Assembly: GCA_025361085.1 (NCBI GenBank)
Contig: JANYAX010000001.1
Location: forward strand, 1 to 58,194
Direction of reading: 5' to 3'
From: Candidatus Nomurabacteria bacterium
GTDB taxonomy: Bacteria; Patescibacteriota; Minisyncoccia; Phycocordibacterales; UBA9973
Length of the DNA stretch: 58,194 nt
Part shown: positions 1,278-53,902 of the stretch, in pieces
Numbering within the stretch: the first letter of the stretch is position 1
Layout: each line of letters opens with the position of its first letter
The notes under the pieces: generated by a model
The model's database searches: none
Seen by the model: only the letters and a program-made list of their open reading frames with translations
Told to the model about the DNA's origin: nothing
Program-made: the position numbers and the translations under genes

Positions 1278-1314
1278 CCCTCTACTTTATAAGGAGAGGG
1301 GCAGGGGGTGAGGT
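1278..1314 (+). repeat. G+C-rich repeat copy in the prfB leader (CCCTCTACTTTATAAGGAGAGGGGCAGGGGGTGAGGT)
   Basis: Matches 1680-1717 inside prfB with 3 substitutions and one 1-nt indel; its 3' end (GAGGTG, about 10 nt before ATG 1327) is the only Shine-Dalgarno-like sequence for prfB. Confidence 0.85.
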
Positions 1315-1326
1315 GGATTAATTAAT

Positions 1327-2280
1327 ATGGAAAACAATACCGAAGAATTAAAGAAAGAAATAGAAACTCTTGAAGGCCAGATGATGGAAGGGAATTTCTG
1401 GAATGATAAAACAAAAGCGCAAGCGACGATAAAGCGGATTGCTTTTTTGAAAGACGAAATACTTGGTGCGCAGAAATACGATAAGGGGAATGCTATCCTT
1501 TCGATTCTCTCTGGTGCTGGTGGTGATGATGCCGAAGACTTTTCGGCCATGCTTCTAAAGATGTACATGAAGTATATTGAGAAAATGAATTGGAAGTGGA
1601 GTGTGATTCATGAGAATAAAAATGACAATGGTGGTTATCGCAATGTATCAATCGAGGTCAAGGGGGTTGGTTCTAAACCCCCTCTCCTTACTAAGGAGAG
1701 GGGGCAGGGGGTGAGGTCTTTTGCGGGGGTGACTGGTCCTTACGGCACACTGAAAAATGAATCTGGTGTTCATCGTTTAGTCCGCATTTCTCCATTTAAT
1801 GCGAATGCCAAGCGTCACACTTCTTTTTCTTTAATTGAAGTCATTCCAGAATTTGAGAAAAGTGATAAAGTTATCGAGATTCCACAGAACGATCTCAAGA
1901 TCGAACTTTCTAAATCGGGGGGCCCTGGCGGGCAGAATGTGAACAAGCGCGAGACGGCTGTTCGAGTAGTTCATTTGCCGACAAACTTATCTGTCCATGT
2001 TACTTCTGAGCGTTCTCAAGAGCAAAATAAAGAAAAAGCACTTGAGATGCTCAAAGGTAAACTTTTCAAGAAAAGAGAAGAAGACAAAAAGCGCGAAAAA
2101 GACGGTTTATCTATTTCCAAGACGACAGACATCGAATGGGGGAACCAAATCCGCTCTTATGTGCTTCATCCTTATAAAATGGTCAAAGATCATCGCACGG
2201 GAGTTGAAGTTGGTAATGTTGACTCCGTCCTTTTAGATGGTGCGATTGATGAATTTATTGAAGCCGAACGTGATTTGTGA
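1327..2280 (+). CDS. prfB: Peptide chain release factor 2
   Basis: 317-aa ORF with SPF (RISPFNANAKRHTSF) and GGQ (SGGPGGQNVNKRETAVR) motifs; single uninterrupted ORF; carries an insert of about 20 aa encoded by the repeat at 1678-1717. Confidence 0.9.
   Translation: MENNTEELKKEIETLEGQMMEGNFWNDKTKAQATIKRIAFLKDEILGAQKYDKGNAILSILSGAGGDDAEDFSAMLLKMYMKYIEKMNWKWSVIHENKNDNGGYRNVSIEVKGVGSKPPLLTKERGQGVRSFAGVTGPYGTLKNESGVHRLVRISPFNANAKRHTSFSLIEVIPEFEKSDKVIEIPQNDLKIELSKSGGPGGQNVNKRETAVRVVHLPTNLSVHVTSERSQEQNKEKALEMLKGKLFKKREEDKKREKDGLSISKTTDIEWGNQIRSYVLHPYKMVKDHRTGVEVGNVDSVLLDGAIDEFIEAERDL
1678..1717 (+). repeat. In-frame G+C-rich palindromic element inside prfB
   Basis: CCCCCTCTCCTTA-C-TAAGGAGAGGGGG is a perfect 13-bp inverted repeat followed by CAGGGGGTGAGGT; it encodes KPPLLTKERGQGVRS between IEVKG and PYGTLKNESGVHRLVR; second copy at 1278-1314. 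Confidence 0.85.
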
Positions 2281-6556: not shown

Positions 6557-7129
6557 ATGGAAAATTTAAATAAAAAAATTATATATGATGAACAAGGGTT
6601 GAAACCAGGTTCAGATTATGAAAAGGGCCAGTGGAAAAATATTGCCGTTCATAATGATAAAGAGGTCAGAGGTTTCTTCGGAGAATATCGTTTTTTGAAC
6701 AATTTTTGGCCAGCTAGAGTTATATTAGAAGATGATGAATACCATGCGACAGAAAATGCTTATCAAGCTTCAAAATATAAAAAAGAGATGAGAGAATATT
6801 TTAAAACTTGCACCCCTAAAGAGGCTGTAGCTTTCGTTCGAGATAACCCCATGGGTATATATACAAGAGAAGAATGGGATAAAGTTAAATTAGAAATAAT
6901 GAGAAAATTGTTAGAGCAAAAATTTGATAAAAATTTAAATCCTGAAAACTATAAAAAATTAATAGAAACCGGAGATAAATATCTTGAGGAGACAAATTAT
7001 TGGGAAGACAAATATTGGGGCGTAAGCAAAATTGACGCTAGTGAAAATGGAATCGGCGAAAATAATCTCGGCAAATTATTAATGGAAATCAGAAGTGAGT
7101 ATCATGAGGCAAGACCTCACGATATATAA
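6557..7129 (+). CDS. NADAR (YbiA/DUF1768)-family protein
   Basis: 190 aa; FFGEYRFLNNFWP, ENAYQASKY and YWG motifs recalled from the family; ATG lies 1 nt after the tRNA CCA end. Confidence 0.75.
   Translation: MENLNKKIIYDEQGLKPGSDYEKGQWKNIAVHNDKEVRGFFGEYRFLNNFWPARVILEDDEYHATENAYQASKYKKEMREYFKTCTPKEAVAFVRDNPMGIYTREEWDKVKLEIMRKLLEQKFDKNLNPENYKKLIETGDKYLEETNYWEDKYWGVSKIDASENGIGENNLGKLLMEIRSEYHEARPHDI
7034..7099 (+). repeat. Left copy of a 66-bp direct repeat (3' part of the NADAR gene)
   Basis: 65 of 66 nt identical to 9218-9283. Confidence 0.95.
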
Positions 7130-9211: not shown

Positions 9212-9313
9212 AAAACCGACGCCAGTGAAAATGGAATCGGCGAAAATAATCTCGGCAAATTATTAATGGAAATCAGAAGTGAGATCAAAAATGGCCAACA
9301 ACTTGTTGTATAA
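9212..9313 (+). pseudogene. Displaced 3' fragment of a NADAR gene (contains the right copy of the 66-bp repeat, 9218-9283)
   Basis: Reads KTDASENGIGENNLGKLLMEIRSEIKNGQQLVV-stop in the same frame as the intact gene but has no upstream coding body. Confidence 0.8.
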
Positions 9314-28206: not shown

Positions 28207-28278
28207 GCAGGATTGTTAAAATTTTTATCCGTGTCGGAGCCCTTTAGGGTAAAGCGGGAAAAATTTTAATAATTCTGC
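28207..28278 (-). ncRNA. Long-stem hairpin element, copy 1 (between thyA and folA)
   Basis: Stem of about 20 bp (18 of 20 paired) around the core CCCGCUUUACCC-UAAA-GGGCUCCGACACGG in the sense of the flanking genes; related to 47904-47979 and 33559-33596. Confidence 0.6.
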
Positions 28279-31677: not shown

Positions 31678-33522
31678 ATGAAAGAACAAATAGAAAATTT
31701 AATAAAAGAAACTTTAAAAAATCTTGGGATTCCTGCCTGCGCAGGCAGGGAAGATTGTGATTTTTCTGTTGAACATCCTGATGATTTTAATAATGGTGAT
31801 TATTCGACGAATGTGGCGATGGTGAGTGCCAAAAGTTTAAAAACAAATCCAAAAGAATTAGCGGAAAAGATTGTTATAACCCTTCGGCAAGCTCAGGGTG
31901 AATTTCCTGGAATACAGGAAATTCAGATTGCGGGGCCTGGGTTTATAAATTTTTATTTATCTCGAAATTTTTTTACAGAAAGTATAAATAAAATTTTGAA
32001 GGAAGGAGAAAATTGGGGGAAAAATAATTCATCTCTTGGTAAAAAAATAATGGTTGAGTATACCGACCCGAACCCTTTTAAGCCATTTCACATCGGGCAC
32101 TTAATGACGAATGCAATAGGAGAATCGATTTCTCGTATTGTTGAATTCTCTGGAGCTAAAACTGTCAGGGCAAATTATCAGGGCGATATTGGGCCACATG
32201 TAGCTAAAGCGATATATGGTCTTATGAAATTTGGCATGCCTGATGAATTAAAATTAACCGCGGAAAAAGCAGAATATATTGGTGAATGTTATTCGAAAGG
32301 AAGTAATTTATATGATACTGATGAGAATGTTAAAAAAGAAATTGATGAGATAAATAAGAAGATTTATGATAAATCAGATGTTGAGATAAACAAAATTTAT
32401 GATTGGGGGCGAAAAGTAACTCTCGATGCTTTTGAAGAAATATACAAAATTCTTGGAACGAAATTCAATCATTATTTTTTTGAAAGCGAGATGGCGCCTA
32501 TTGGAGAGGAGATTGTTCGCGCAAATGTTATGGCCGAAGGTCCCGAGAGTAACCGAGGGATATTTGAAGATTCAAATGGCGCAATAATTTTCCATGGTGA
32601 GAATTATGACAAGAAACTTCACACACGAGTGTTTATCAATTCACAAGGCCTTCCAACATATGAGACAAAAGAAATTGGTCTCACAATGACTAAATTTGAA
32701 AAAGAAAATCCCGATCTTTCTATTGTTATCACTGCCACAGAGCAAGCCGAATATATGAAAGTAGTTCAGAAAGCTATTTCGTTACTTCACCCAGATTTAG
32801 AGAGTAGAATGAAGCATATTACTCACGGTATGATGCGCTTCGCTTCTGGTAAAATGTCGTCTAGAAAAGGGAATGTAGTCACAGGTGAATCACTTTTGCG
32901 TGATTCGATGGATGTAGTTTATGAAAAAGTTAAAGATCGTGATTTAGAAAATGGAGAAAAAAAGAAAATTGCCGAAGTAGTTGGAGTATCTGCTCTCAAA
33001 TATTCAATTCTAAGGTCGTCTATTGGTAGTGATATTATTTACGATTTTGAAAAATCTATTTCTTTTGATGGTGATTCTGGTCCATATTTACAATACACTG
33101 CAGTCCGAGCAAATTCGATACTCGATAAAGCAAAAGATTTTAAAACCCCCTCGGCTGTTGGCCACTCCTTACAGGAGCAGTACACTTCTCACGTTTTGAA
33201 TACAAAACATTCAAAGTCTTGCGCTTCGGATCCCATCCCGAAGCTCACCCCCTTATCAGGGGGAGAAGTAAATTCTCTTGAAAAATTAATTTATCAATTC
33301 GAAGAAATTGTTGAGTACTCATATGAGAGGCTAGAACCGCATCATATAGCGGTTTATCTTACCGAACTCGCAAGTAGTTTCAATACTTTTTATGGTAATA
33401 CAAAAATTCTTGATGATGGAAACAAAAATATAGCTTATCACTTAGATCTAGTAAAAGCATTTTACCAAACAATGAAAAACGGCCTCTGGCTCTTGGGTAT
33501 TGAAGTTCCAGAGAAAATGTAA
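31678..33522 (+). CDS. argS: Arginine--tRNA ligase
   Basis: PNPFKPFHIGHLMTNAIGE (HIGH) and C-terminal YLTELASSFNTFY; ATG 31678 is adjacent to the dut stop. Confidence 0.9.
   Translation: MKEQIENLIKETLKNLGIPACAGREDCDFSVEHPDDFNNGDYSTNVAMVSAKSLKTNPKELAEKIVITLRQAQGEFPGIQEIQIAGPGFINFYLSRNFFTESINKILKEGENWGKNNSSLGKKIMVEYTDPNPFKPFHIGHLMTNAIGESISRIVEFSGAKTVRANYQGDIGPHVAKAIYGLMKFGMPDELKLTAEKAEYIGECYSKGSNLYDTDENVKKEIDEINKKIYDKSDVEINKIYDWGRKVTLDAFEEIYKILGTKFNHYFFESEMAPIGEEIVRANVMAEGPESNRGIFEDSNGAIIFHGENYDKKLHTRVFINSQGLPTYETKEIGLTMTKFEKENPDLSIVITATEQAEYMKVVQKAISLLHPDLESRMKHITHGMMRFASGKMSSRKGNVVTGESLLRDSMDVVYEKVKDRDLENGEKKKIAEVVGVSALKYSILRSSIGSDIIYDFEKSISFDGDSGPYLQYTAVRANSILDKAKDFKTPSAVGHSLQEQYTSHVLNTKHSKSCASDPIPKLTPLSGGEVNSLEKLIYQFEEIVEYSYERLEPHHIAVYLTELASSFNTFYGNTKILDDGNKNIAYHLDLVKAFYQTMKNGLWLLGIEVPEKM
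31732..31749. repeat. Perfect 18-nt palindrome CCTGCCTGCGCAGGCAGG inside argS
   Basis: Self-complementary; read as PACAGR; near-identical copies at 34891-34908 and 47553-47570. Confidence 0.9.
33145..33267 (+). repeat. Composite G+C-rich insertion of about 120 nt in the argS C-terminal region
   Basis: Four successive hairpins (CTCCT-TAC-AGGAG, GTTTTG-AATA-CAAAAC, CTTCGG-N8-CCGAAG, CCCCC-TTATCA-GGGGG); its ends match the metG element at 46537-46576. Confidence 0.8.
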
Positions 33523-33937: not shown

Positions 33938-36900
33938 ATGGAAGAAAACAAAAAATCACAATCTGCGCTTCGAGAAGAATCAGTTTTACAGTTCTGGAAA
34001 GAAAATGATACTTTCAAGAAAAGTCTCGAGAAAGAATCACCAAAGGGTGAGTATGTTTTCTATGAAGGTCCACCAACTGCCAACGGCAAACCAGGCATTC
34101 ACCATCTAGAGGCACGAGCATTCAAAGATGCAATTCCAAGATATAAAACAATGCGAGGGTATCATGTTCGCCGAAAAGGGGGTTGGGATACGCACGGTCT
34201 TCCTGTGGAATTGCAAGTTGAGAAAAAATTGGGTCTTGCTTCGAAGAAAGCAATTGAAGAATATGGAATTGCAAAATTCAATCAAGAATGCAAAGAAAGC
34301 GTTTGGGAATACACCGATCTCTGGGAGAAATTTACTGACCGCATCGGTTACTGGGTAGACCAGAAGAATGCATATGTAACTTATCACAACGATTATATTG
34401 AATCTGTTTGGAATGTTATCAAAGAAGCCGACAAACAGAAATTACTTTATAAAGATTATAAAGTTGTTCCATGGTGCCCACGTTGTGGGACCGGGCTTTC
34501 TTCGCACGAGCTAGCGCAGGGGTATGTGGATGTGAAAGATTTGTCGGTGTATGCAAAATTTCGACTTGTGCAACAAGTCGTCCCGAGCGAAGTCGAGGGA
34601 AAAAGTCTTTCAATAGGTTATGATACATATATTCTTGCTTGGACAACAACCCCTTGGACACTCCCTGGTAATGTGGCTTTGGCTGTTGGTGAAGATATTG
34701 ATTATGTAAAAATAGAAATTTCATCAGACCTCACCCTTGCTAAGGGGGAGGAGAAGATGGGGGTATTTTTAATTCTTGCAAAATCTCGTCTTTCTGTAAT
34801 AGAAGGCGAGTATAAGACTGTTGAAGAATTTAAAGGTAAAGATTTAATCGGTTTAGAATACGAACCTCTTTACCCTTATCTCTCAAATATCCTGGCTGCG
34901 CAGGCAGGAATTTCTGATCTTGAAAAACAAAAACTCGATAAAGCGTTCAAGGTTTACGGCGCAGATTTTGTGACGACCGAAGATGGTACTGGTGTTGTGC
35001 ACACTGCGGTGATGTATGGAGTAGATGACTTTGTGTTGGGAAATAAAATTGGTTTGCCAAAACATCACATGGTTGGGCTTGATGGAAAGTTCCTAGAAGG
35101 GACCGATTTCTTAGAAGGGAGATTTGTTCGTGACGAAGATGTGGCGGTAGATATAATAAAAGATTTAGCACATCGTGGCCTTCTGTTTAAAAAAGAAAAA
35201 TACGAACACTCATACCCACATTGTTGGCGCTGTAAAACAGCTCTCATTTATTATGCTCGCGATTCTTGGTATATCAGGATGTCGTCTCTTCGCGATAAAA
35301 TGGTAGAAGAAAATGAAAGTATAAATTGGGAACCATCATATATCAAAGACGGGCGTTTTGGTGAATGGCTCAAAGACATAAAAGATTGGGCAATTTCTCG
35401 TGAACGTTACTGGGGTACACCTCTTCCTGTTTGGAGTTGTAATGAATGTAAAAAATATGAAGTTATTGGAAGTTTGGAAGATATAAAATCAAAAACCAAA
35501 AAATCTGGAAATAAATATTTCATAATGCGTCATGGAGTATCGGAAGCTAATATTTGTGATAAGGTGAGTTGCAATGTTAATGATGTTGACCATCTTACCG
35601 AAGAAGGGAAAAAACAAGTTCTAAATTCCATAGAAGATTTAAAAAATAAAAAAATTAATTTAATAATTTCGTCTGATTTTATAAGAACGAAAGAAACAGC
35701 AGAAATTATTAAAGATACGTTAAACATTAAAGAAGAAGATTATATTTTTGAGAAAAGAATAAGAGAATTAAATGTTGGAGTTTTTGATGGGAAAACATGG
35801 AGTGAATATTATGGTTCTCGCGAAGAAAAAGATTGGTACTCTTATAAACCGCAAAGTGGTGAATCATGCAAGGAAGTCAAATTTAGAATGACTAGCTTTT
35901 TGTATGAATTAGAACAAAAATATAAAGATAAAAATATTCTAATCGTTACCCACGAAGGACCAGCTAGAATGTTATTAGCGGGAATACTTGGATTAGATGA
36001 CAAAGAGACAGAAGAACAACTAGAAAATAAAATTCCGCACTTAGAAAATGCTAGTGTAACAGAACTTGATTTTATCCCTCTACCTCACAACGAAAATTAC
36101 GAACTTGATTTTCATAAACCATATATCGATGAGGTTGAATTAAATTGTCAGTGTGGTGGAAAGTTAGAAAGAACAAAAGAAGTGATGGATGTCTGGCTTG
36201 ATTCAGGGACGATGCCGTTTTCGCAAGATCATTATCCTTTCGATTTCCTTCCACAAAAGTCAGGACAAGTCGCGGAGGGCAGGCCATTCGAAAACAAACA
36301 ATTACCTTATCCCGCAGATTTTATCTGTGAAGCGATGGACCAGACTCGTGGATGGTTCTATACCTTGCACGCCGTTGGAATGATAATGGGTAAGGGCAAA
36401 GCCTACAAAAACGTGATTTGTCTGGGTCTTCTTCTTGATGCCCAAGGAAAGAAAATGTCTAAGTCGCTTGGTAATATCGTCGACCCTTGGGAGATGATGC
36501 ACAAATATGGAGCCGATACTATTCGTCTGTGGATGTATTCGGTCAATCAGCCCGGTGACCCAAAGAGTTTCGATGAGAAAGTTGTTTCTGAATTACACAA
36601 TAAAGTTTTCAATTTGCTTTATAACGTTCTCGCTTTCTATGAACTCTATCGTGACCCTTCATTAGAAACTAAAACATATAAATTAGAATCTGATTCGAAT
36701 ATATTAGATCAGTGGATAATTGCACGTCTCTCTGAACTTACAGAAAATATGACCAAGCAACTTGACGGCTACAAACTTCTCGAACCTATCCGCGCGATTC
36801 GAGATTTCATTGATGATCTTTCGACTTGGTATTTGAGACGATCAAGAGATCGTATAAAAAATAATGATCAAGAAGCAAAAATCACAATGTACTATGTTTT

Positions 36901-37579
36901 GAAAACACTAGTCAAACTCATGGCTCCATTTGCGCCTTTCGCAGCCGAAGATATTTGGCAGAGATTAAAAAATAATCGTGTTTCAACAGACGAGACACGA
37001 CATGATTTCGCTAAATCAGAGGTAGAAAGTGTGCATTTAGCAGATTGGCCTGAGTTACCTCTATTGGGTCTCCTTCATACAAAGGGCGAAGGGAAATATA
37101 AGGTTTTGGAAGAAATGCAACAAGTTAGAAAAATTGTTACTCTTGGGTTGCAAGCAAGACAAAAAGCTGGAATTCCAGTAAGACAACCGCTTTCGGATTT
37201 GAGTCTAAAAAATTATGAATTAGATAAAGAATATACAAAAATAATTAAAGAAGAATTAAATATTAAGATTGTCATGACAAATAGTGCAATGACAGATGAG
37301 GTAGTTATAAACACCAACATAGATCCGAAATTAAAACGTGAAGGGCAGTATCGAGAACTCGTGAGAGCAATACAAGATATTCGTAAAAAGAACGGGCTTA
37401 ATCCAAGTGACATAGTTACTATTGTTGCTGATACAAATTCAAAAGGGCAAGAATTGGTAAATGAATTCAAAACCGAGCTCATGAAAGCAGTTAGTGCCAA
37501 AGATATACAGATGAAAGAAAACAGTGGAGAAGAAATGAAAATCGGAGAATTTTCATTTAAAATTTTAATCGAAAAATAA
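33938..37579 (+). CDS. ileS: Isoleucine--tRNA ligase with a nested histidine-phosphatase domain
   Basis: PPTANGKPGIHH (HIGH), WTTTPWTLPGN (editing domain), KMSKSLGN; 1213 aa. Confidence 0.95.
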   Translation: MEENKKSQSALREESVLQFWKENDTFKKSLEKESPKGEYVFYEGPPTANGKPGIHHLEARAFKDAIPRYKTMRGYHVRRKGGWDTHGLPVELQVEKKLGLASKKAIEEYGIAKFNQECKESVWEYTDLWEKFTDRIGYWVDQKNAYVTYHNDYIESVWNVIKEADKQKLLYKDYKVVPWCPRCGTGLSSHELAQGYVDVKDLSVYAKFRLVQQVVPSEVEGKSLSIGYDTYILAWTTTPWTLPGNVALAVGEDIDYVKIEISSDLTLAKGEEKMGVFLILAKSRLSVIEGEYKTVEEFKGKDLIGLEYEPLYPYLSNILAAQAGISDLEKQKLDKAFKVYGADFVTTEDGTGVVHTAVMYGVDDFVLGNKIGLPKHHMVGLDGKFLEGTDFLEGRFVRDEDVAVDIIKDLAHRGLLFKKEKYEHSYPHCWRCKTALIYYARDSWYIRMSSLRDKMVEENESINWEPSYIKDGRFGEWLKDIKDWAISRERYWGTPLPVWSCNECKKYEVIGSLEDIKSKTKKSGNKYFIMRHGVSEANICDKVSCNVNDVDHLTEEGKKQVLNSIEDLKNKKINLIISSDFIRTKETAEIIKDTLNIKEEDYIFEKRIRELNVGVFDGKTWSEYYGSREEKDWYSYKPQSGESCKEVKFRMTSFLYELEQKYKDKNILIVTHEGPARMLLAGILGLDDKETEEQLENKIPHLENASVTELDFIPLPHNENYELDFHKPYIDEVELNCQCGGKLERTKEVMDVWLDSGTMPFSQDHYPFDFLPQKSGQVAEGRPFENKQLPYPADFICEAMDQTRGWFYTLHAVGMIMGKGKAYKNVICLGLLLDAQGKKMSKSLGNIVDPWEMMHKYGADTIRLWMYSVNQPGDPKSFDEKVVSELHNKVFNLLYNVLAFYELYRDPSLETKTYKLESDSNILDQWIIARLSELTENMTKQLDGYKLLEPIRAIRDFIDDLSTWYLRRSRDRIKNNDQEAKITMYYVLKTLVKLMAPFAPFAAEDIWQRLKNNRVSTDETRHDFAKSEVESVHLADWPELPLLGLLHTKGEGKYKVLEEMQQVRKIVTLGLQARQKAGIPVRQPLSDLSLKNYELDKEYTKIIKEELNIKIVMTNSAMTDEVVINTNIDPKLKREGQYRELVRAIQDIRKKNGLNPSDIVTIVADTNSKGQELVNEFKTELMKAVSAKDIQMKENSGEEMKIGEFSFKILIEK
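34730..34750 (+). repeat. In-frame C/G-run hairpin in ileS
   Basis: CTCACCCTT-GCT-AAGGGGGAG, same type as 46557-46576 and 33244-33265; encodes LTLAKGE. Confidence 0.6.
34891..34908. repeat. 18-nt palindrome copy (CCTGGCTGCGCAGGCAGG) inside ileS
   Basis: 17 of 18 nt identical to 31732-31749; read in a different frame (LAAQAG). Confidence 0.85.
35500..36073 (+). other. Histidine phosphatase (PGAM-like) domain nested in IleRS
   Basis: FIMRHGVSEAN (RHG at 35528-35536), SSDFIRTKETA, RELNVGVFDGKTW and IVTHEGPARML, in the canonical order and spacing. Confidence 0.8.
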
Positions 37580-45390: not shown

Positions 45391-46875
45391 ATGCAAAAAA
45401 CATTTTTCTTAACCACAACGCTACCTTACGTAAATGCGCCACTTCACATGGGGCATGCTCTTGAATTTGTGCGAGCCGATACGATAGCTCGCTACAAGAA
45501 ACTTTCTGGTTTTGATGTCTATTTTAATACGGGGACAGATGAACACGGTTTAAAAATATTTGAAAAAGCTAAAGAAAAAGGTTTAACTGCTCAAGAATTT
45601 GTCGACCAAGGGTTTGAAGTTTTTAAAGAACAATTGAAAATGTTTGGGGTAAGTGATGATATTCACTTTATTCGTACAACCGACAAGAGCCATGAAAAAG
45701 CCGCGCAAGAATTCTGGGTTAGGGTGAATGACAATGGTTATATCTATAAAAAGAATTATGAAGCTAAATATTGTGTAGGATGTGAAAGTGGAAAGACTGA
45801 TAGTGAGCTTGTAGATGAGAGATGCTCGCTCCACCCAGATGTTGAATTGAAAATAATTAAAGAAGAAAATTATTTTTTTAAATATTCAGAATTTGGAGAA
45901 AAGCTCCTAGCTTTTTACGAAAAGAACCCTAATTTTGTTGTCCCAGATTTTCGTTTTCATGAGATAAAAAACTTTGTTAAAAATGGTTTGCAAGATTTTT
46001 CTATTTCACGTTTGAAAGAAAAAATGCCGTGGGGGATAGAGGTACCAGGAGATAATACTCAAGTAATGTATGTTTGGTTTGACGCGCTTGTAAATTATAT
46101 CTCGACACTTGGTTGGCCCTTCGCTGATGCTCAGGACCTTCGGCCCTTCGAACAAAATAATTTTGAAAAATACTGGGTGAATGGGAATCCAACGCAATAT
46201 TGTGGAAAAGATAATACTCGTTTTCAGGCGGCTATGTGGCAAGCAATGCTTATGGCTGCGGGTGTTCCAAATTCACATCAAATAATCGTAAATGGGTTTA
46301 TCACAGGAGAAGGGGGAATTCGTATGTCTAAATCACTTGGTAATGGTGTAGACCCACGCGATATTGTGGGTGAATATGGCACAGATGCGCTCCGATATTT
46401 CTTGCTTCGCGAAGTCGGAAGTTTTGAAGATAGCCCATTTACGGTTGAACGATTCAAAGATGCTTACAATTCAGGATTAGCAAACGGGTTGGGAAATTTG
46501 ACGTCGAGGATTTTGACTTTATCGGAAAAATATTTGACCCCCTCTGCCTCCGGCATCTCCCCCTTAGCAGGGGGAGAAAAATACGTTTTTCATACAGAGT
46601 TTACTAATCACTTAGAAAATTTTGATATTCAAAAAGCAACAGAATTTATTTGGCAGAAAATAGGAGATCTAGATAAGAGAATTCAAGAAACAGAACCGTT
46701 CAAGGTTGTGAAAGTAGATATTGAGAAAGGGAAAGAATTGATAAAAGAAAATATCGAGAGACTTTATGAAATATCCGAATTATTAATTCCCATGCTTCCA
46801 GAAACTTCACAAAAAATTCAAGAACTCATAAAACAAAACAAAAAACCAGAAGCCCCATTGTTTTTTAGAAAATAA
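45391..46875 (+). CDS. metG: Methionine--tRNA ligase
   Basis: PYVNAPLHMGHA (HIGH) and RMSKSLGN (KMSKS); ATG 45391 follows the previous stop. Confidence 0.9.
   Translation: MQKTFFLTTTLPYVNAPLHMGHALEFVRADTIARYKKLSGFDVYFNTGTDEHGLKIFEKAKEKGLTAQEFVDQGFEVFKEQLKMFGVSDDIHFIRTTDKSHEKAAQEFWVRVNDNGYIYKKNYEAKYCVGCESGKTDSELVDERCSLHPDVELKIIKEENYFFKYSEFGEKLLAFYEKNPNFVVPDFRFHEIKNFVKNGLQDFSISRLKEKMPWGIEVPGDNTQVMYVWFDALVNYISTLGWPFADAQDLRPFEQNNFEKYWVNGNPTQYCGKDNTRFQAAMWQAMLMAAGVPNSHQIIVNGFITGEGGIRMSKSLGNGVDPRDIVGEYGTDALRYFLLREVGSFEDSPFTVERFKDAYNSGLANGLGNLTSRILTLSEKYLTPSASGISPLAGGEKYVFHTEFTNHLENFDIQKATEFIWQKIGDLDKRIQETEPFKVVKVDIEKGKELIKENIERLYEISELLIPMLPETSQKIQELIKQNKKPEAPLFFRK
46115..46152 (+). repeat. In-frame 38-nt G+C-rich element in metG
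   Basis: GGCCCTTCGCTGATGCTCAGGACCTTCGGCCCTTCGAA; the 16-nt core GCTCAGGACCTTCGGC is identical to the inverted intergenic copy at 48104-48141; the 5' half matches glyA 29528-29555. Confidence 0.85.
46537..46576 (+). repeat. In-frame C/G-run hairpin element in metG
   Basis: ACCCCCTCTGCCTCCGGCAT-CTCCCCC-TTAGCA-GGGGGAG; encodes TPSASGISPLAGGE; the ends match the argS insertion (TPSAVG...TPLSGGE). Confidence 0.85.
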
Positions 46876-46879
46876 AATA

Positions 46880-46912
46880 CCCTCACCTGGCCTCCCCCTA
46901 CATAGGGGGAAG
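46880..46912. repeat. Intergenic C/G-run hairpin element between metG and the TatD gene
   Basis: TCCCCCTA-CA-TAGGGGGA (46893-46910), perfect 8-bp arms. Confidence 0.8.
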
Positions 46913-46956
46913 TGCTCCAACTTTGTTGGAGTGGTGGTGGATATTTAAATAATACC

Positions 46957-47895
46957 ATGCCCAAATACATTGATATACATTGCCATACGAATTTTAAGAT
47001 TTTCGAGAATGATCGAGATGAGGTTATTCGACGTGCGCTCGATAATGACACCTGGCTTATAAATATTGGTACACAATATGATACTTCGAAAAAAGCAGTC
47101 GAAATGACAAGAGAATATCCTGACGGAGTTTTTGCAACTATTGGCCTCCACCCGATTCATACAGACAAGTCATATCATGATGAGAGTGAGATTGGCGAGG
47201 GTGGTCAAGAATTTTCTTCTCGTGGAGAAATTTTTGATAAAGAAAAATATAAAGAATTAGCTAAACAAGGGAAAGTTGTAGGAATAGGTGAGTGTGGACT
47301 CGATTATTATCACATTGGTTCGACAAGCTCACCACAAAGGGAACTAGAATTTATTGAAAAACAAAAAACGGCATTTATTGCACAGATTGAACTTGCAAAT
47401 GAACTTGATTTACCACTTATGCTTCACGTGCGCAATGGTTCACTTCGTCGGGCTCAGTGTAAACTCAGCTCACCACAGGCAACCGAAAAGAACGCGTATT
47501 TTGATGTTTATGAATTATTAAAAAAGTATTCAAAAAGGATTAATGAAAAAGGCCTGCCTGCGCAGACAGGAGTCTCGCATTTTTTTGCTGGTAGTGTAGA
47601 AGATATGAAAAGATTTATCGAGATAGGAGTATATATTTCTTTTGCTGGTCCAATAACTTATAAACCAAAGCCAGAAATTTGTGACTATATAGGAGTGATA
47701 AAAGAAACCTCGCTAGATATGATTCTTGCCGATACAGACAGTCCATATGTGGCCCCGGTGCCCCATAGGGGGGAAAGGAATGAACCAGTGAATGTATCTG
47801 ATATAGTGGCCAAAATAGCCGAAATTAAGGGGATTAGCGAGGCTGAAGCATCTAAATCGATACTTTCAAACGCCCAAAAACTCTTTAATATATAA
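46957..47895 (+). CDS. TatD-family metal-dependent hydrolase
   Basis: IDIHCH, GECGLDYY, SHFFAG and DTDSPYVAPVPHRGERNEP motifs; about 55 aa longer than typical because of three G+C-rich patches. Confidence 0.85.
   Translation: MPKYIDIHCHTNFKIFENDRDEVIRRALDNDTWLINIGTQYDTSKKAVEMTREYPDGVFATIGLHPIHTDKSYHDESEIGEGGQEFSSRGEIFDKEKYKELAKQGKVVGIGECGLDYYHIGSTSSPQRELEFIEKQKTAFIAQIELANELDLPLMLHVRNGSLRRAQCKLSSPQATEKNAYFDVYELLKKYSKRINEKGLPAQTGVSHFFAGSVEDMKRFIEIGVYISFAGPITYKPKPEICDYIGVIKETSLDMILADTDSPYVAPVPHRGERNEPVNVSDIVAKIAEIKGISEAEASKSILSNAQKLFNI
47317..47340 (+). repeat. In-frame G+C-rich patch 1 in the TatD gene
   Basis: GGTTCGACAAGCTCACCACAAAGG (GSTSSPQR); shares TTCG-CAAGCTCA with argS 31880-31902 and AGCTCACCACA with 47437-47482. 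Confidence 0.6.
47437..47482 (+). repeat. In-frame G+C-rich patch 2 in the TatD gene
   Basis: GGTTCACTTCGTCGGGCTCAGTGTAAACTCAGCTCACCACAGGCAA (GSLRRAQCKLSSPQA). Confidence 0.6.
47553..47570. repeat. 18-nt palindrome copy (CCTGCCTGCGCAGACAGG) in the TatD gene
   Basis: 17 of 18 nt identical to 31732-31749; read as LPAQTG. Confidence 0.85.
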
Positions 47896-47903
47896 ATTAC
47901 TTC

Positions 47904-47979
47904 ACAAGATTACTAAAATTATTCGCGCTTTCCCCAGAGTACTGGGCTCCGACACGACTCATAATTCTAGTAATCTTGT
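47904..47979 (+). ncRNA. Long-stem hairpin element, copy 2 (between the TatD gene and rpsF)
   Basis: 19-bp stem (18 paired) around the core CGCGCUUUCCCCAG-AGUA-CUGGGCUCCGACACGA; same orientation relative to the flanking genes as copy 1. Confidence 0.6.
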
Positions 47980-48103
47980 TTCGTTTTATGACTGGACATT
48001 TGGGCTTTGTTCTGTTAATATAAGCCTTATCTCGTTTGTCCCGACCCTGAAGTCGGTACACATAGGTCCGTAGCGAGATTCCGTATGCATTGAGAAGTTA
48101 GTC

Positions 48104-48141
48104 TTCGAATGCGCCGAAGGTCCTGAGCCGAAAGGCGAAGG
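48104..48141 (-). repeat. Intergenic inverted copy of the metG 46115-46152 element
   Basis: The reverse complement reads CCTTCGCCTTTCGGCTCAGGACCTTCGGCGCATTCGAA. Confidence 0.85.
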
Positions 48142-48184
48142 AATTAAAAATTAAAAATTAAAGCGTATTTTACGCTAAATCATA

Positions 48185-51191: not shown

Positions 51192-51307
51192 AAAATTTAA
51201 AGATTGTTGCCAAACAGTCCGCAATTTTTGGTTGGGGACTGTTTGTCGTATTTATTTTTAGTATTTAATGATATAATATGAATATTATAAAAATAATTTA
51301 TTGCAAT

Positions 51308-51958
51308 ATGAAAAAAATATTATTTGGGTTGTTTCTGTTCTGCCTTTTCGCATTTGGTTCTCAGGCTCATGCATCGGTTCTAAGTGATGCACTTGCTCAA
51401 ATTAAAAATTTAGAAAATGAAATTGCTCAATTAAAAGCCAATCTCACTGCTTGGGGGTATGTTCCTAGGACTACCACTACCACTACTGCAAACACAAACA
51501 CAAATCTAAAAACGAGTACTGTGATTACTCAATGTAGTGATGGTGTTGATAATGATGGGGATGGTTTAGTAGATGCCAGAGATCCTGGTTGTCATACAGA
51601 TGAAATAGCAAGCAATGTCGCTAGTTATAATCCTAAAATTAATAATGAGGGAACAGTCACGATATCACTACTACCTCAATGTAGTGATGGTGTTGATAAT
51701 GATGGGGATGGTTTAGTAGATGCCAGAGATCCTGGTTGTCATACAGATGAAATAGCAAGCAATGTCACTAGTTATAATCCTAAGTGGACTTTTGAATCAA
51801 CAATTCCAAATGGATGCACAACGACAACAAAATATAGTGTAACCACTGGTCAATTGTGTACTGGAGTAACATACCCTCCGGGTTGTACTTCAATTTATGG
51901 TTACAGTGTTACAACAGGGCAATCGTGTTCTCCTATTGCTATTGCTGCTGCTGATTAG
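51308..51958 (+). CDS. Secreted protein with duplicated DNDGDG calcium-binding-like modules and two Cys-loop mini-repeats
   Basis: Signal peptide MKKILFGLFLFCLFAFGSQAHA; QCSDGVDNDGDGLVDARDPGCH twice; CTTTTKYSVTTGQLC and CTSIYGYSVTTGQSC. Confidence 0.7.
   Translation: MKKILFGLFLFCLFAFGSQAHASVLSDALAQIKNLENEIAQLKANLTAWGYVPRTTTTTTANTNTNLKTSTVITQCSDGVDNDGDGLVDARDPGCHTDEIASNVASYNPKINNEGTVTISLLPQCSDGVDNDGDGLVDARDPGCHTDEIASNVTSYNPKWTFESTIPNGCTTTTKYSVTTGQLCTGVTYPPGCTSIYGYSVTTGQSCSPIAIAAAD
51528..51783 (+). repeat. Near-perfect 109-bp direct duplication with a 147-bp period inside the CDS
   Basis: 51528-51636 versus 51675-51783; single mismatch (51620 g versus 51767 a). Confidence 0.95.
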
Positions 51959-52752: not shown

Positions 52753-53902
52753 TGTTGTGTTTTAATTGTGGAATATAATATAATCCAGACAATAATATTA
52801 TGCTTAATATAATAAAGAGAAACTTGAATGGTAAAAATATAAATATGATAGTACTGATGATTGGAGCAATAATATATGCAACTGGCATCATATCTCGAAA
52901 TACACTAAGTAGGTATGCTTCTTCTTCTTTAATATGTGAAAAGAAATAAATTTCTGAAGTTGTCTCGATTATACTTGCTCCGACACGAGTCATGAACAAG
53001 ACAACTCCCCAGACTAGAATATTTTTCGTTGTGATTCCTGATATTATAAATGTGAATATACTTATAATCAGGAATCCAAAATAAAGAAGTGTTCTTTTTT
53101 TGACATGATATTTATCAATAAGTATTCCGATCGGTAAACCAAGTATTACAAATGGTGCGAGCATTATTGTAAATATAATTCCAATCTGAGCCCAACCTAA
53201 ACCGATATGTTCATATAAATATATAGGTGTATAAACAACCATCCAAGCGTAAAAGAATTGCAAAATAAAATTTATTATTGTAATTGCCAGCATATGGTGA
53301 TTTGTTTTGAGGAATCTATATGTTTCTAAAAATGGTGTTTTTTTATAAGTCTTATCTTTGAAAGTTTTTACTGAGAAAACCAAGCCGATAGCCATTATCG
53401 CAACTGTTATAAATGCGAGTGTATAAATAGCTTTGTATCCGCCTTCTTTTGTTATTAAAAATGATGCTAAAAGGGGAGACATCATCCATGCGATATTTAT
53501 TATTGTTAGATAGAGTCCACGATTTTTGCCAACAGTTTTTTTATTACCAAAATGCTCGATAAATATATCAATACAGAAGAGTATCTGAGTGTTTGTCGAA
53601 ACGAAGGCAACAAATGAAGCCCCAACGATATAAGAGTTTGTCGACGTGATCATTCCCACGAGAGATAACATGTTTAATACTAGCAGTGTCAATGTTAACC
53701 GTTTGTTTCCAAAATATTTCAAGATATTTGCACTTTTAGACAGCAAAATTAGTGTAGTCAGAGAAGCCAAAGTAAAGAGTATACCTACATATTTTTCGGA
53801 TATTATGCCAGTTAGAAATGTCGAGTTTATATATGCCGATAAGGCGATATGAAGAGAAAAAAGAAACGACAATATGTACATTCGATTAATTTTTTTTGAC
53901 AT
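52721..53902 (-). CDS. MFS transporter
   Basis: 393 aa; about 12 hydrophobic helices in two halves. Confidence 0.75.
   Translation of the reverse strand: MSKKINRMYILSFLFSLHIALSAYINSTFLTGIISEKYVGILFTLASLTTLILLSKSANILKYFGNKRLTLTLLVLNMLSLVGMITSTNSYIVGASFVAFVSTNTQILFCIDIFIEHFGNKKTVGKNRGLYLTIINIAWMMSPLLASFLITKEGGYKAIYTLAFITVAIMAIGLVFSVKTFKDKTYKKTPFLETYRFLKTNHHMLAITIINFILQFFYAWMVVYTPIYLYEHIGLGWAQIGIIFTIMLAPFVILGLPIGILIDKYHVKKRTLLYFGFLIISIFTFIISGITTKNILVWGVVLFMTRVGASIIETTSEIYFFSHIKEEEAYLLSVFRDMMPVAYIIAPIISTIIFIFLPFKFLFIILSIILLSGLYYIPQLKHNNDNNLPCPNK

Follow-up and report, generated by a model that had tools for sequence, protein, structure and literature searches.

What is a GC-rich segment of 41 codons doing inside the gene for an arginyl-tRNA synthetase, and why do its ends recur in the gene for a second synthetase? 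The segment occupies positions 33145–33267, within argS, of a contig from Candidatus Nomurabacteria (58,194 nt, analysed whole and referred to here as the window), and its counterpart, a 40-nt element, lies in metG at 46537–46576. A sequence-only reading of this DNA had taken the two for a long and a short member of one family of elements, conserved at the ends and variable in between. Aligning many copies supports this proposal, and the terminal similarity persists in the alignment. We consider it reasonably probable that the two are copies of a small repeat of the BoxC/PIT/TMECO type, non-coding and without a gene of its own, which spreads as selfish DNA. Judged from sequence, the conserved termini correspond to the three arms of an intrastrand-triplex motif of BoxC/PIT type and not to the ends of a transposon.

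The argS insert and its short relative in metG

The window has a base composition of ~35% G+C with a positive GC skew throughout, and carries housekeeping genes, mainly on the plus strand; sediment metagenomes contain the contig again. Pfam identifies the four host genes as ArgRS, MetRS, IleRS and RF2, and the nearest ArgRS and MetRS homologues (67–82% identity) are named Candidatus Nomurabacteria or Paceibacterota. Both segments are where they were first located, with the translations given at the time. The argS segment, ACCCCCTCGGCTGTTGGCCACTCC...CTCACCCCCTTATCAGGGGGAGAA, is 123 nt long, GC-rich within an AT-rich host gene, and reads TPSAVGHSLQEQYTSHVLNTKHSKSCASDPIPKLTPLSGGE in the argS frame. 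Its predicted fold (−44.6 kcal/mol; z = −3.8 against shuffles) contains five hairpins (33153–63, 33165–77, 33193–208, 33223–44 and 33246–65), correcting the four consecutive small hairpins counted originally. Loci other than the window are given L numbers below.

33145–33267, plus strand: long composite element in argS, ArgRS residues 490–530 (ATG at 31678), in frame and stop-free
33145–33152, plus strand: 5′ tag ACCCCCTC, putative third-strand (Hoogsteen-type) arm, mirror image of the hairpin arm CTCCCCC
33153–33163, plus strand: linker mini-hairpin GGCTGTTGGCC, counterpart of GGCTTCCAGCC at the same position in L001
33165–33177, plus strand: proximal degenerate hairpin CTCC-TTACA-GGAG, occupying the place of CTCCCCC-TTAGCA-GGGGGAG of short elements (by comparison with L001)
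33178–33244, plus strand: long-form interior with hairpins GTTTTG-AATA-CAAAAC (33193–33208) and GCTTCGG-ATCCCATC-CCGAAGC (33223–33244)
33245–33267, plus strand: distal hairpin TCACCCCC-TTATCA-GGGGGAGAA, the 3′ terminus common to short elements

The stem of the distal hairpin has 6 bp, an A-A mismatch and 2 further bp. The tag lies ~95 nt away from it, so that the third-arm feature is present only across a long linker.

ArgRS of the window is 614 residues long, against a common base length of 567 among 119 homologues, none of which carries the segment; general conservation in ArgRS, which would have told against an inserted element, is thereby absent. Aligned with solved ArgRS structures, the segment forms an unaligned gap between helices of the DALR anticodon-binding domain. 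An AlphaFold model of the protein (mean pLDDT, the per-residue confidence score, 82) places residues 492–529 as coil with pLDDT <50 between helices 468–485 and 533–539, and the insert is predicted to be a disordered loop in a tolerated position. The ArgRS alignment sets a few interior residues (N..TK..D.P.IP.K) onto native loop residues, and part of the interior could, from the alignment, be native loop. Independent copies with other flanks (below) argue against such an origin for 33165–33251. The 41-residue insert peptide returned no candidates when used as a protein query.

The metG element reads ACCCCCTCTGCCTCCGGCATCTCCCCCTTAGCAGGGGGAG, translates as TPSASGISPLAGG(E), and on the plus strand is TPSASGISPLAGGE. 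Among the peptides predicted to span insert junctions is ...YLTPSASGISPLAGGEK....

46537–46577, minus strand: short element in metG, a perfect class II triplex motif TCTCCCCCT-gcta-AGGGGGAGA-tgccggaggc-AGAGGGGGT

Its two hairpin arms, TCTCCCCCT and AGGGGGAGA, pair perfectly over 9 bp, and the third arm mirrors them at 9/9 positions. The claim that the argS and metG segments share termini holds best at the 3′ end, where the argS terminus is recovered by a profile of four short copies (E = 8.5e-4). At the 5′ end, the 27 nt of argS taken alone are weak (E = 0.6), and the shared start becomes convincing through a bridging copy in L001. This short element occupies the ArgRS loop that holds the long insert in the window. 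It follows the conserved SIL(D/N)K immediately, and 20 of its first 24 nt equal those of the long insert; it reads ACCCCCTCGGCTTCCAGCCACTCCCCCTTAGCAGGGGGAGAT and encodes TPSASSHSPLAGGD.

The further suggestion that short members are internally deleted long ones is better reversed, given the distribution of the two forms: the short form is widespread and highly conserved, the long form rare and local. In three sediment sequencing runs (X1–X3), other short contigs match 33165–33251 or parts of it at ~83–91% identity over the aligned stretches, with different flanks. The long copies with different flanks have the ~87-nt interior in common at ~86%, defining a subfamily with at least three further copies in the same sediments. 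At least two of these begin with their own ACCCCTC tag and mini-hairpin. The first begins GACCCCTCAGCCCTACAGGCAG (tag and mini-hairpin) and ends ...CACCCC-TTAGCA-GGGG, followed by ATCAAAACTC..., with four C's in both tag and distal hairpin where the window has five; the second begins ACCCCTCCGCCTTCGGCAC. In run X2 the long copies are present while the argS flanks of the window stand at zero depth, which places these copies in other genomes. No further copy of the long-form interior was found in the window, in ~130 loci, in JGI metagenome contigs or in viral contigs. The absence of the long form from other collections and studies, set against short copies in many habitats, marks it as a local derivative, and the long form is more likely a short element with an expanded linker than the parent of the short form.

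Three arms and a variable linker

In the BoxC/PIT/TMECO design (Holder et al. 2015, PMC4666352), a pyrimidine arm and a purine arm are accompanied by a third arm, itself the mirror image of the purine arm. The elements described here are built from a hairpin CTCCCCC-loop-GGGGGAG, a tag ACCCCCTC that mirrors the pyrimidine arm, and a linker joining the two. Scanning species genomes for the 20-nt hairpin CTCCCCCTTANCAGGGGGAG yielded at least 120 stretches in many phyla (~4 expected by our own rough estimate), and nearly every match listed has (A)CCCCCTC 2–25 nt upstream. Among the matches listed, the tag stands upstream of ~82% of CTCCCCC hairpins (129 loci). We tabulated single-T permutations of the tag against those of the stem, again over the loci listed: CTCCCCC stems have the mirror tag CCCCCTC upstream in 127 cases against 8 for the direct repeat, and with CCTCCCC stems the mode shifts to CCCCTCC (66 against 3). 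Neither duplication nor inversion can generate a mirror repeat, which indicates a structural constraint.

The variable interior of the family is the linker between tag and hairpin, measuring 2–3 nt in its shortest form, 11 nt as the mini-hairpin of metG, 18–20 nt in L048 and L119 and ~95 nt in argS. Across 12 copies of the 39-nt class the linker helix shows double compensatory changes in 4/4 pairs, with 95.8% of cells paired and a covariation score reached by none of 500 shuffles. From this arrangement one DNA strand could fold back twice into an intrastrand triple helix. The antisense strand of the gene would form a pyrimidine-purine-purine triplex (the purine motif) and the sense strand or the mRNA a pyrimidine-pyrimidine-purine triplex (the pyrimidine motif), and the linker would be free to vary provided that it stays compact. 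Rfam 15 at gathering score finds no family in the window or in 14 element-bearing loci, and a permissive scan of 33050–33350 gave nothing relevant. Marinomonas (L061, L081, L087 and L129) carries tandem arrays of tag plus hairpin with periods of ~49, 113 and 133 nt; elsewhere copies are single or in inverted pairs.

Hairpins with C5/G5 stems had also been pointed out in ileS, intergenic DNA and prfB, and these prove to be real and related elements.

1678–1718, plus strand: BoxC-type element in prfB, CCCCCTCTCCTT-act-AAGGAGAGGGGG-ca-GGGGGTGAGGTC
34728–34765, minus strand: degenerate reverse-orientation copy in ileS, read as LTLAKGEEKMG
46879–46938, minus strand: intergenic copy between metG and tatD, TCCCCCT-atgt-AGGGGGA-ggccagg-TGAGGGT, stem of 7 bp
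1283–1307, plus strand: half copy TAAGGAGAGGGGCAGGGGGTGAGGT just upstream of the prfB start codon, nearly identical to 1692–1716 inside prfB

The prfB element lies within a ~22-residue insertion relative to solved RF2 structures. Its arms span 12 bp (12 nt) with one mismatch, its third arm mirrors 11 of 12 positions, and two interruptions of the purine arm recur, mirrored, in the third arm. The ileS copy coincides with a 12-residue insertion specific to the window relative to three IleRS orthologues. The intergenic copy resembles the argS variant of L004 (10572–10625); it has no T-tail and is thus not terminator-like. C5-N(3–12)-G5 hairpins number 4 in the window against 0.04 expected (a ~100-fold excess), and a triplex-motif finder reports 4 motifs against 0.07 in Markov simulations.

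Two of these genes have further features of their own. prfB starts at 1327, with no CTTTGA frameshift site upstream, and its product is ~45 residues shorter at the N terminus than E. coli RF2; the half copy TAAGGAGAGGGGCAGGGGGTGAGGT occupies the position expected for the ribosome-binding site. IleRS (33938–37579) contains a complete histidine-phosphatase domain (PF00300, PGM-like; residues 528–712) within its catalytic domain. The same insertion is found in L001, L004, L005, L130 and L131, that is, in every related contig examined, which makes it a lineage trait.

Copies across sites, genes and genomes

Orthologous synthetases carry the short element at different places. In MetRS, site A (near residue 259) is filled in L137 and empty in L138, and site B is filled in L138 and the window and empty in L137; each site therefore has filled and empty alleles. 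In ArgRS, L004 has the element at residue ~70, L001 and the window at ~490. The L004 copy differs from the metG element of the window at 2 of 42 nt, in an ArgRS only 69% identical to that of the window, and the first 26 nt are identical in the metG element, L004, L137 and L138, whose host proteins are only ~70–80% identical. Conservation of the element is thus far above that of its host genes. Lake and groundwater metagenome contigs match 46537–46579/80 (43–44 nt) at 100%, and soil and freshwater contigs match shorter stretches at 95–100%, in each case with unrelated flanks on both sides. Copies of 99–100% identity come from four unrelated metagenomes, and some of the matching copies are within ArgRS or MetRS. 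Other genomes of the candidate phyla radiation (CPR) have in-frame copies in UvrA, PepN (aminopeptidase N), MurI, Fmt, Jag and a helicase-nuclease, and alignments of ArgRS and MetRS contain many insert peptides. Among the matches listed, hairpin plus tag occurs in Patescibacteria, Proteobacteria, Omnitrophota, Planctomycetota, Bacteroidota and Cyanobacteria. Compared as DNA, the copies show the short form to be a dispersed element with repeated insertions that differ in site, gene and genome. A search of viral contigs for the hairpin gave only 5 matches, and phages are on this count no obvious vector. An assembly artefact was considered and rejected, copies being present in independent assemblies.

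The same comparisons bear on whether there is a family at all. Each copy might have arisen where it stands, by template switching or fold-back synthesis during replication, without any movement. Many different small GC-rich palindromes are found in the window, the arms are of low complexity, hairpins of G and C runs occupy a small sequence space, and neither a transposase nor a target-site duplication was found, all as local origin would have it. Identity over 40–44 nt, linker and loop included, at unrelated loci and in unrelated samples largely refutes this account. Against it also stand the ~87-nt interior that long copies keep at ~86% amid different flanks, and the mirror repeat, which duplication or inversion cannot yield. 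We regard local independent origin as very improbable.

All coding copies examined (42, 123, 33 and 27 nt) are divisible by 3 in length and free of stop codons when read in the frame of the host gene. Plus-orientation genic copies use one frame only, TPS..SPLxGGE; of the alternatives, one contains TAG when the loop is TTAGCA and the other gives an Arg-rich peptide. Reverse-orientation copies read ..PL.KGE.G.G. A single benign frame among genic copies is as expected from a selection filter acting on random insertions, and the inserts are probably translated into floppy surface loops.

The inserts might instead be left untranslated, through skipping by the ribosome or removal from the mRNA. GC-rich hairpins in essential genes of an AT-rich genome do resemble the bypass elements of yeast mitochondria, reportedly described by Lang et al. 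in 2014, on which that comparison is based. Coding copies that are all stop-free multiples of 3 speak against this, as does the one benign frame of plus-orientation copies, which would be needless if the inserts were skipped; we give this explanation very little credence.

A selected host function would explain the single frame in another way. The peptide TPSxSGxSPLAGGE could serve as a linker or modification site, or the structure in mRNA or DNA could regulate translation, transcription or mRNA decay, and the compensatory changes that maintain the linker hairpin, together with a half copy exactly at the expected prfB ribosome-binding site, fit this idea. The inserts are patchy among close orthologues, however, with base-length proteins doing without them, and copies of this DNA lie in either orientation, are also present between genes and extend over many phyla. 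Compensation within the linker changes the encoded peptide (SASGI, SASSH, SPFGH, SADGH), the ArgRS insert is predicted to be disordered, and no T-tail terminator is formed. E. coli elements of this class had no promoter or terminator activity in earlier tests (PMC4666352). On balance, we find a host function improbable.

Mode of spread and comparison with known repeats

Target-site duplications were looked for and found neither in the exact filled/empty pair nor in 29 triplex-type copies, whose longest shared flank string averages 3.34 against 3.25 in shuffled pairs (p = 0.32). Features of DDE-type miniature inverted-repeat transposable elements, namely terminal inverted repeats and target-site duplications, were both absent. 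No intrinsic terminators surround the argS and metG elements, the hairpins having no T-tail. CRISPR repeats (wrong spacing), integron attC sites and inteins (the inserts are far too short) were also considered and rejected.

The lack of target-site duplications and terminal inverted repeats is what single-strand transposition would produce, and the elements might accordingly be likened to repetitive extragenic palindromes (REPs) and their doublets, REPINs, mobilised by RAYT or IS200/IS605-type Y1/HUH enzymes. The tag ACCCCCTC would then be a recognition or cleavage motif and its mirror symmetry incidental. A short hairpin with a conserved 5′ tag has this form, and inverted doublets with a short spacer are frequent in Proteobacteria and Omnitrophota and seen in the CPR uvrA copy. 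REPs are described as two large superfamilies with tags GTAG and CGTC (PMC3733652), and REPIN–RAYT systems as inherited vertically. Nearly all copies here have (A)CCCCCTC instead, the tag covaries with the hairpin arm as its mirror (unnecessary for a fixed cleavage motif), and the same 20–44 nt recur across phyla and habitats. REPs, moreover, are extragenic and lineage-specific, each with a cognate RAYT gene, whereas the tag here mirrors the stem. No Y1 transposase is encoded among the open reading frames of at least 100 residues in the window, which is part of one genome. We hold a REP/REPIN origin to be unlikely.

If the BoxC/PIT/TMECO-type repeats spread as selfish DNA, they would do so via a folded single-stranded intermediate, handled during replication or repair, or by a trans-acting single-strand (HUH/Y1-type) enzyme encoded elsewhere. 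Selection would retain copies whose frame and orientation give a Pro/Ser/Gly-rich, flexible peptide in tolerant surface loops, and the inserts would be translated rather than removed. The long form in argS would have arisen by linker expansion of a short element already present in that ArgRS loop, followed by a few further copies. We entertain a stronger proposal only tentatively: that the 40-nt unit is a currently active, horizontally spreading mobile element defined by its structure, which makes no target duplication, moves by an undescribed mechanism and crosses phyla.

Several points weigh against selfish repeats of the triplex type. The E. coli version gave no stable triplex in double-stranded DNA or in vivo (PMC4666352). 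The C-run of the tag could rival the hairpin arm for the G-run through ordinary base pairing. Our first control for mirror against direct repeats was confounded by neighbouring inverted units, and the loci of the pattern scan were chosen for the hairpin, whose invariance among them is therefore uninformative. The elements take the place of some native loop residues both at site B of MetRS and in the ArgRS loop, so that these events were not clean additions or simple insertions. The exact metG 40-mer and an interior 23-mer are both missing from the JGI metagenome collection, the 40-mer being present in Logan contigs of other metagenomes. No transposase or nuclease of the required kind occurs among open reading frames of at least 100 residues in the window, 58 kb of the genome.

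Other small repeats are found in the same genes. A second in-frame family, the palindrome CCTGCCTGCGCAGGCAGG and its variants, lies in argS (31732–31749), ileS (34896–34912) and tatD (47553–47570), with peptides PACAGR, LAAQAG and LPAQTG; the argS and ileS copies are insertions specific to the window, and the argS copy has pLDDT <50. A third repeat, with GGCCGAAGGTCC in common, is present in argS (32532–32558), metG (46114–46151, minus strand) and intergenic DNA (48101–48142). In argS it reads EGPESNRG and has as its homologue, in that loop of ~10 other ArgRS, an insert richer in A and T, AVSADDNRS; one of these is a clean 27-nt indel between L130 and L131. The AT-richer homologues suggest that old inserts drift towards host base composition. 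Between L005/L006/L007 (5935–5967) and L008/L009, which are ~99.5% identical, there is a precise 33-nt in-frame argS insert, CCCTACTCCTGAGCAGGCTCAGAACGGGCAACG (PTPEQAQNGQR), without duplication; it represents another small hairpin family and is patchy, occurring in 12 of 120 ArgRS at the same site. A 2,245-bp block of L005 (209–2453), holding the end of a MazG-like gene and genes for DHFR, thymidylate synthase and dCMP deaminase, is missing from the near-identical L006; this difference, near the start of L006, may be an alignment edge effect.

Beyond its many different small GC-rich palindromes, the window holds three copies of the GC-rich motif GGGCTCCGACACG (28230–28242, minus strand; 47944–47956; 52977–52988), the first two belonging to an inverted pair of 43 nt (77% complementary) whose halves lie in two intergenic regions. 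A 290-nt intergenic stretch upstream of rpsF (47896–48184) has several GC-rich hairpin patches and no Rfam match. A 109-nt direct repeat (51528–51636 and 51675–51783, 99% identical) lies inside a hypothetical open reading frame (51278–51958), and a 72-nt repeat (7028–7099 and 9212–9283, 96% identical) is found at the 3′ end of a NADAR-domain gene and just downstream of a HAD hydrolase gene.

Since the 1990s, repeats of the intrastrand-triplex type have been familiar as intergenic sequences of E. coli and cyanobacteria, and they were reportedly treated by Hoyne and Maher in 2000; we know of no mode of moving and no function for them. The likeness to the present elements lies in the order of the three arms, richness in G and C, many dispersed copies with some inverted pairs, no link to transposons, and local instability with precise losses. 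It extends to detail in prfB, where CCCCCTCTCC..GGAGAGGGGG..GGGGGTGAGG has the third-arm A-to-T substitution of the E. coli consensus GGGAGAGGG/GGGTGAGGG. As a class, BoxC/PIT/TMECO repeats abound in Proteobacteria and Cyanobacteria, have no transposon association and are linked to local instability. In E. coli K-12 every copy is intergenic, and circular dichroism and nuclear magnetic resonance show that the E. coli version, when isolated as a single strand, folds into a triplex (PMC4666352). The exact TMECO pattern, CCCTCNCCC N3-6 GGGNGAGGG N3 GGGNGAGGG, does not match the elements of the window, whose arms and second-loop length differ. Arms here are of the C5 type CTCCCCC, against CCCTCNCCC in E. 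coli, and the second loop is a covarying mini-hairpin or ~95 nt, against 3 nt. Many copies here lie in frame in essential genes (argS, metG, ileS and prfB; uvrA, pepN, murI, fmt and jag in CPR), those of E. coli between genes. The host here is a CPR bacterium, and the sequence is common to several phyla. By architecture the elements appear to belong to the BoxC/PIT/TMECO class, and not to the E. coli sequence family.

In behaviour, the closest likeness is to Rickettsia palindromic elements, likewise selfish palindromic repeats. Their host genome is reduced and rich in A and T, they sit in frame in unrelated housekeeping genes, and the folded protein apparently tolerates them. Those elements are ~150 bp long, form ten families and are confined to Rickettsia (PMC10969869), a description that sets the present ones apart: these measure 30–48 nt, a third to a quarter of that length (the long form, 123 nt), carry a triplex-type tag and occur in many phyla. 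REPs and REPINs have in common with them a short hairpin flanked by a conserved tag, the occurrence of inverted doublets and the lack of target-site duplication. The GC clusters and bypass elements of yeast mitochondria are likewise mobile GC-rich hairpins in coding regions of an AT-rich genome. Those often break the frame, and are bypassed or lie outside conserved cores, whereas the copies here are in frame and stop-free.

Within the literature that could be searched, we found no triplex-type repeats in coding sequences and no such phenomenon in CPR bacteria. The window thus offers a new setting for a known intergenic repeat design, in frame within aminoacyl-tRNA synthetases, a release factor and repair genes, and, with far smaller elements, a parallel to the selfish repeats that Rickettsia carries inside essential genes. 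Filled and empty alleles, copies identical across habitats and a linker ranging from 2 to ~95 nt make the question of spread testable by comparative and population genomics. Were the 40-nt unit an active mobile element, a large part of the length variation among essential proteins of CPR bacteria would stem from it, and the long form in argS would demonstrate that units of this kind are able to acquire additional sequence and take it along. On the reading of selfish BoxC/PIT/TMECO-type repeats, many short, unalignable loops of CPR proteins would be repeat insertions and not lineage-specific features, which affects annotation, phylogenetic alignments and structure prediction.

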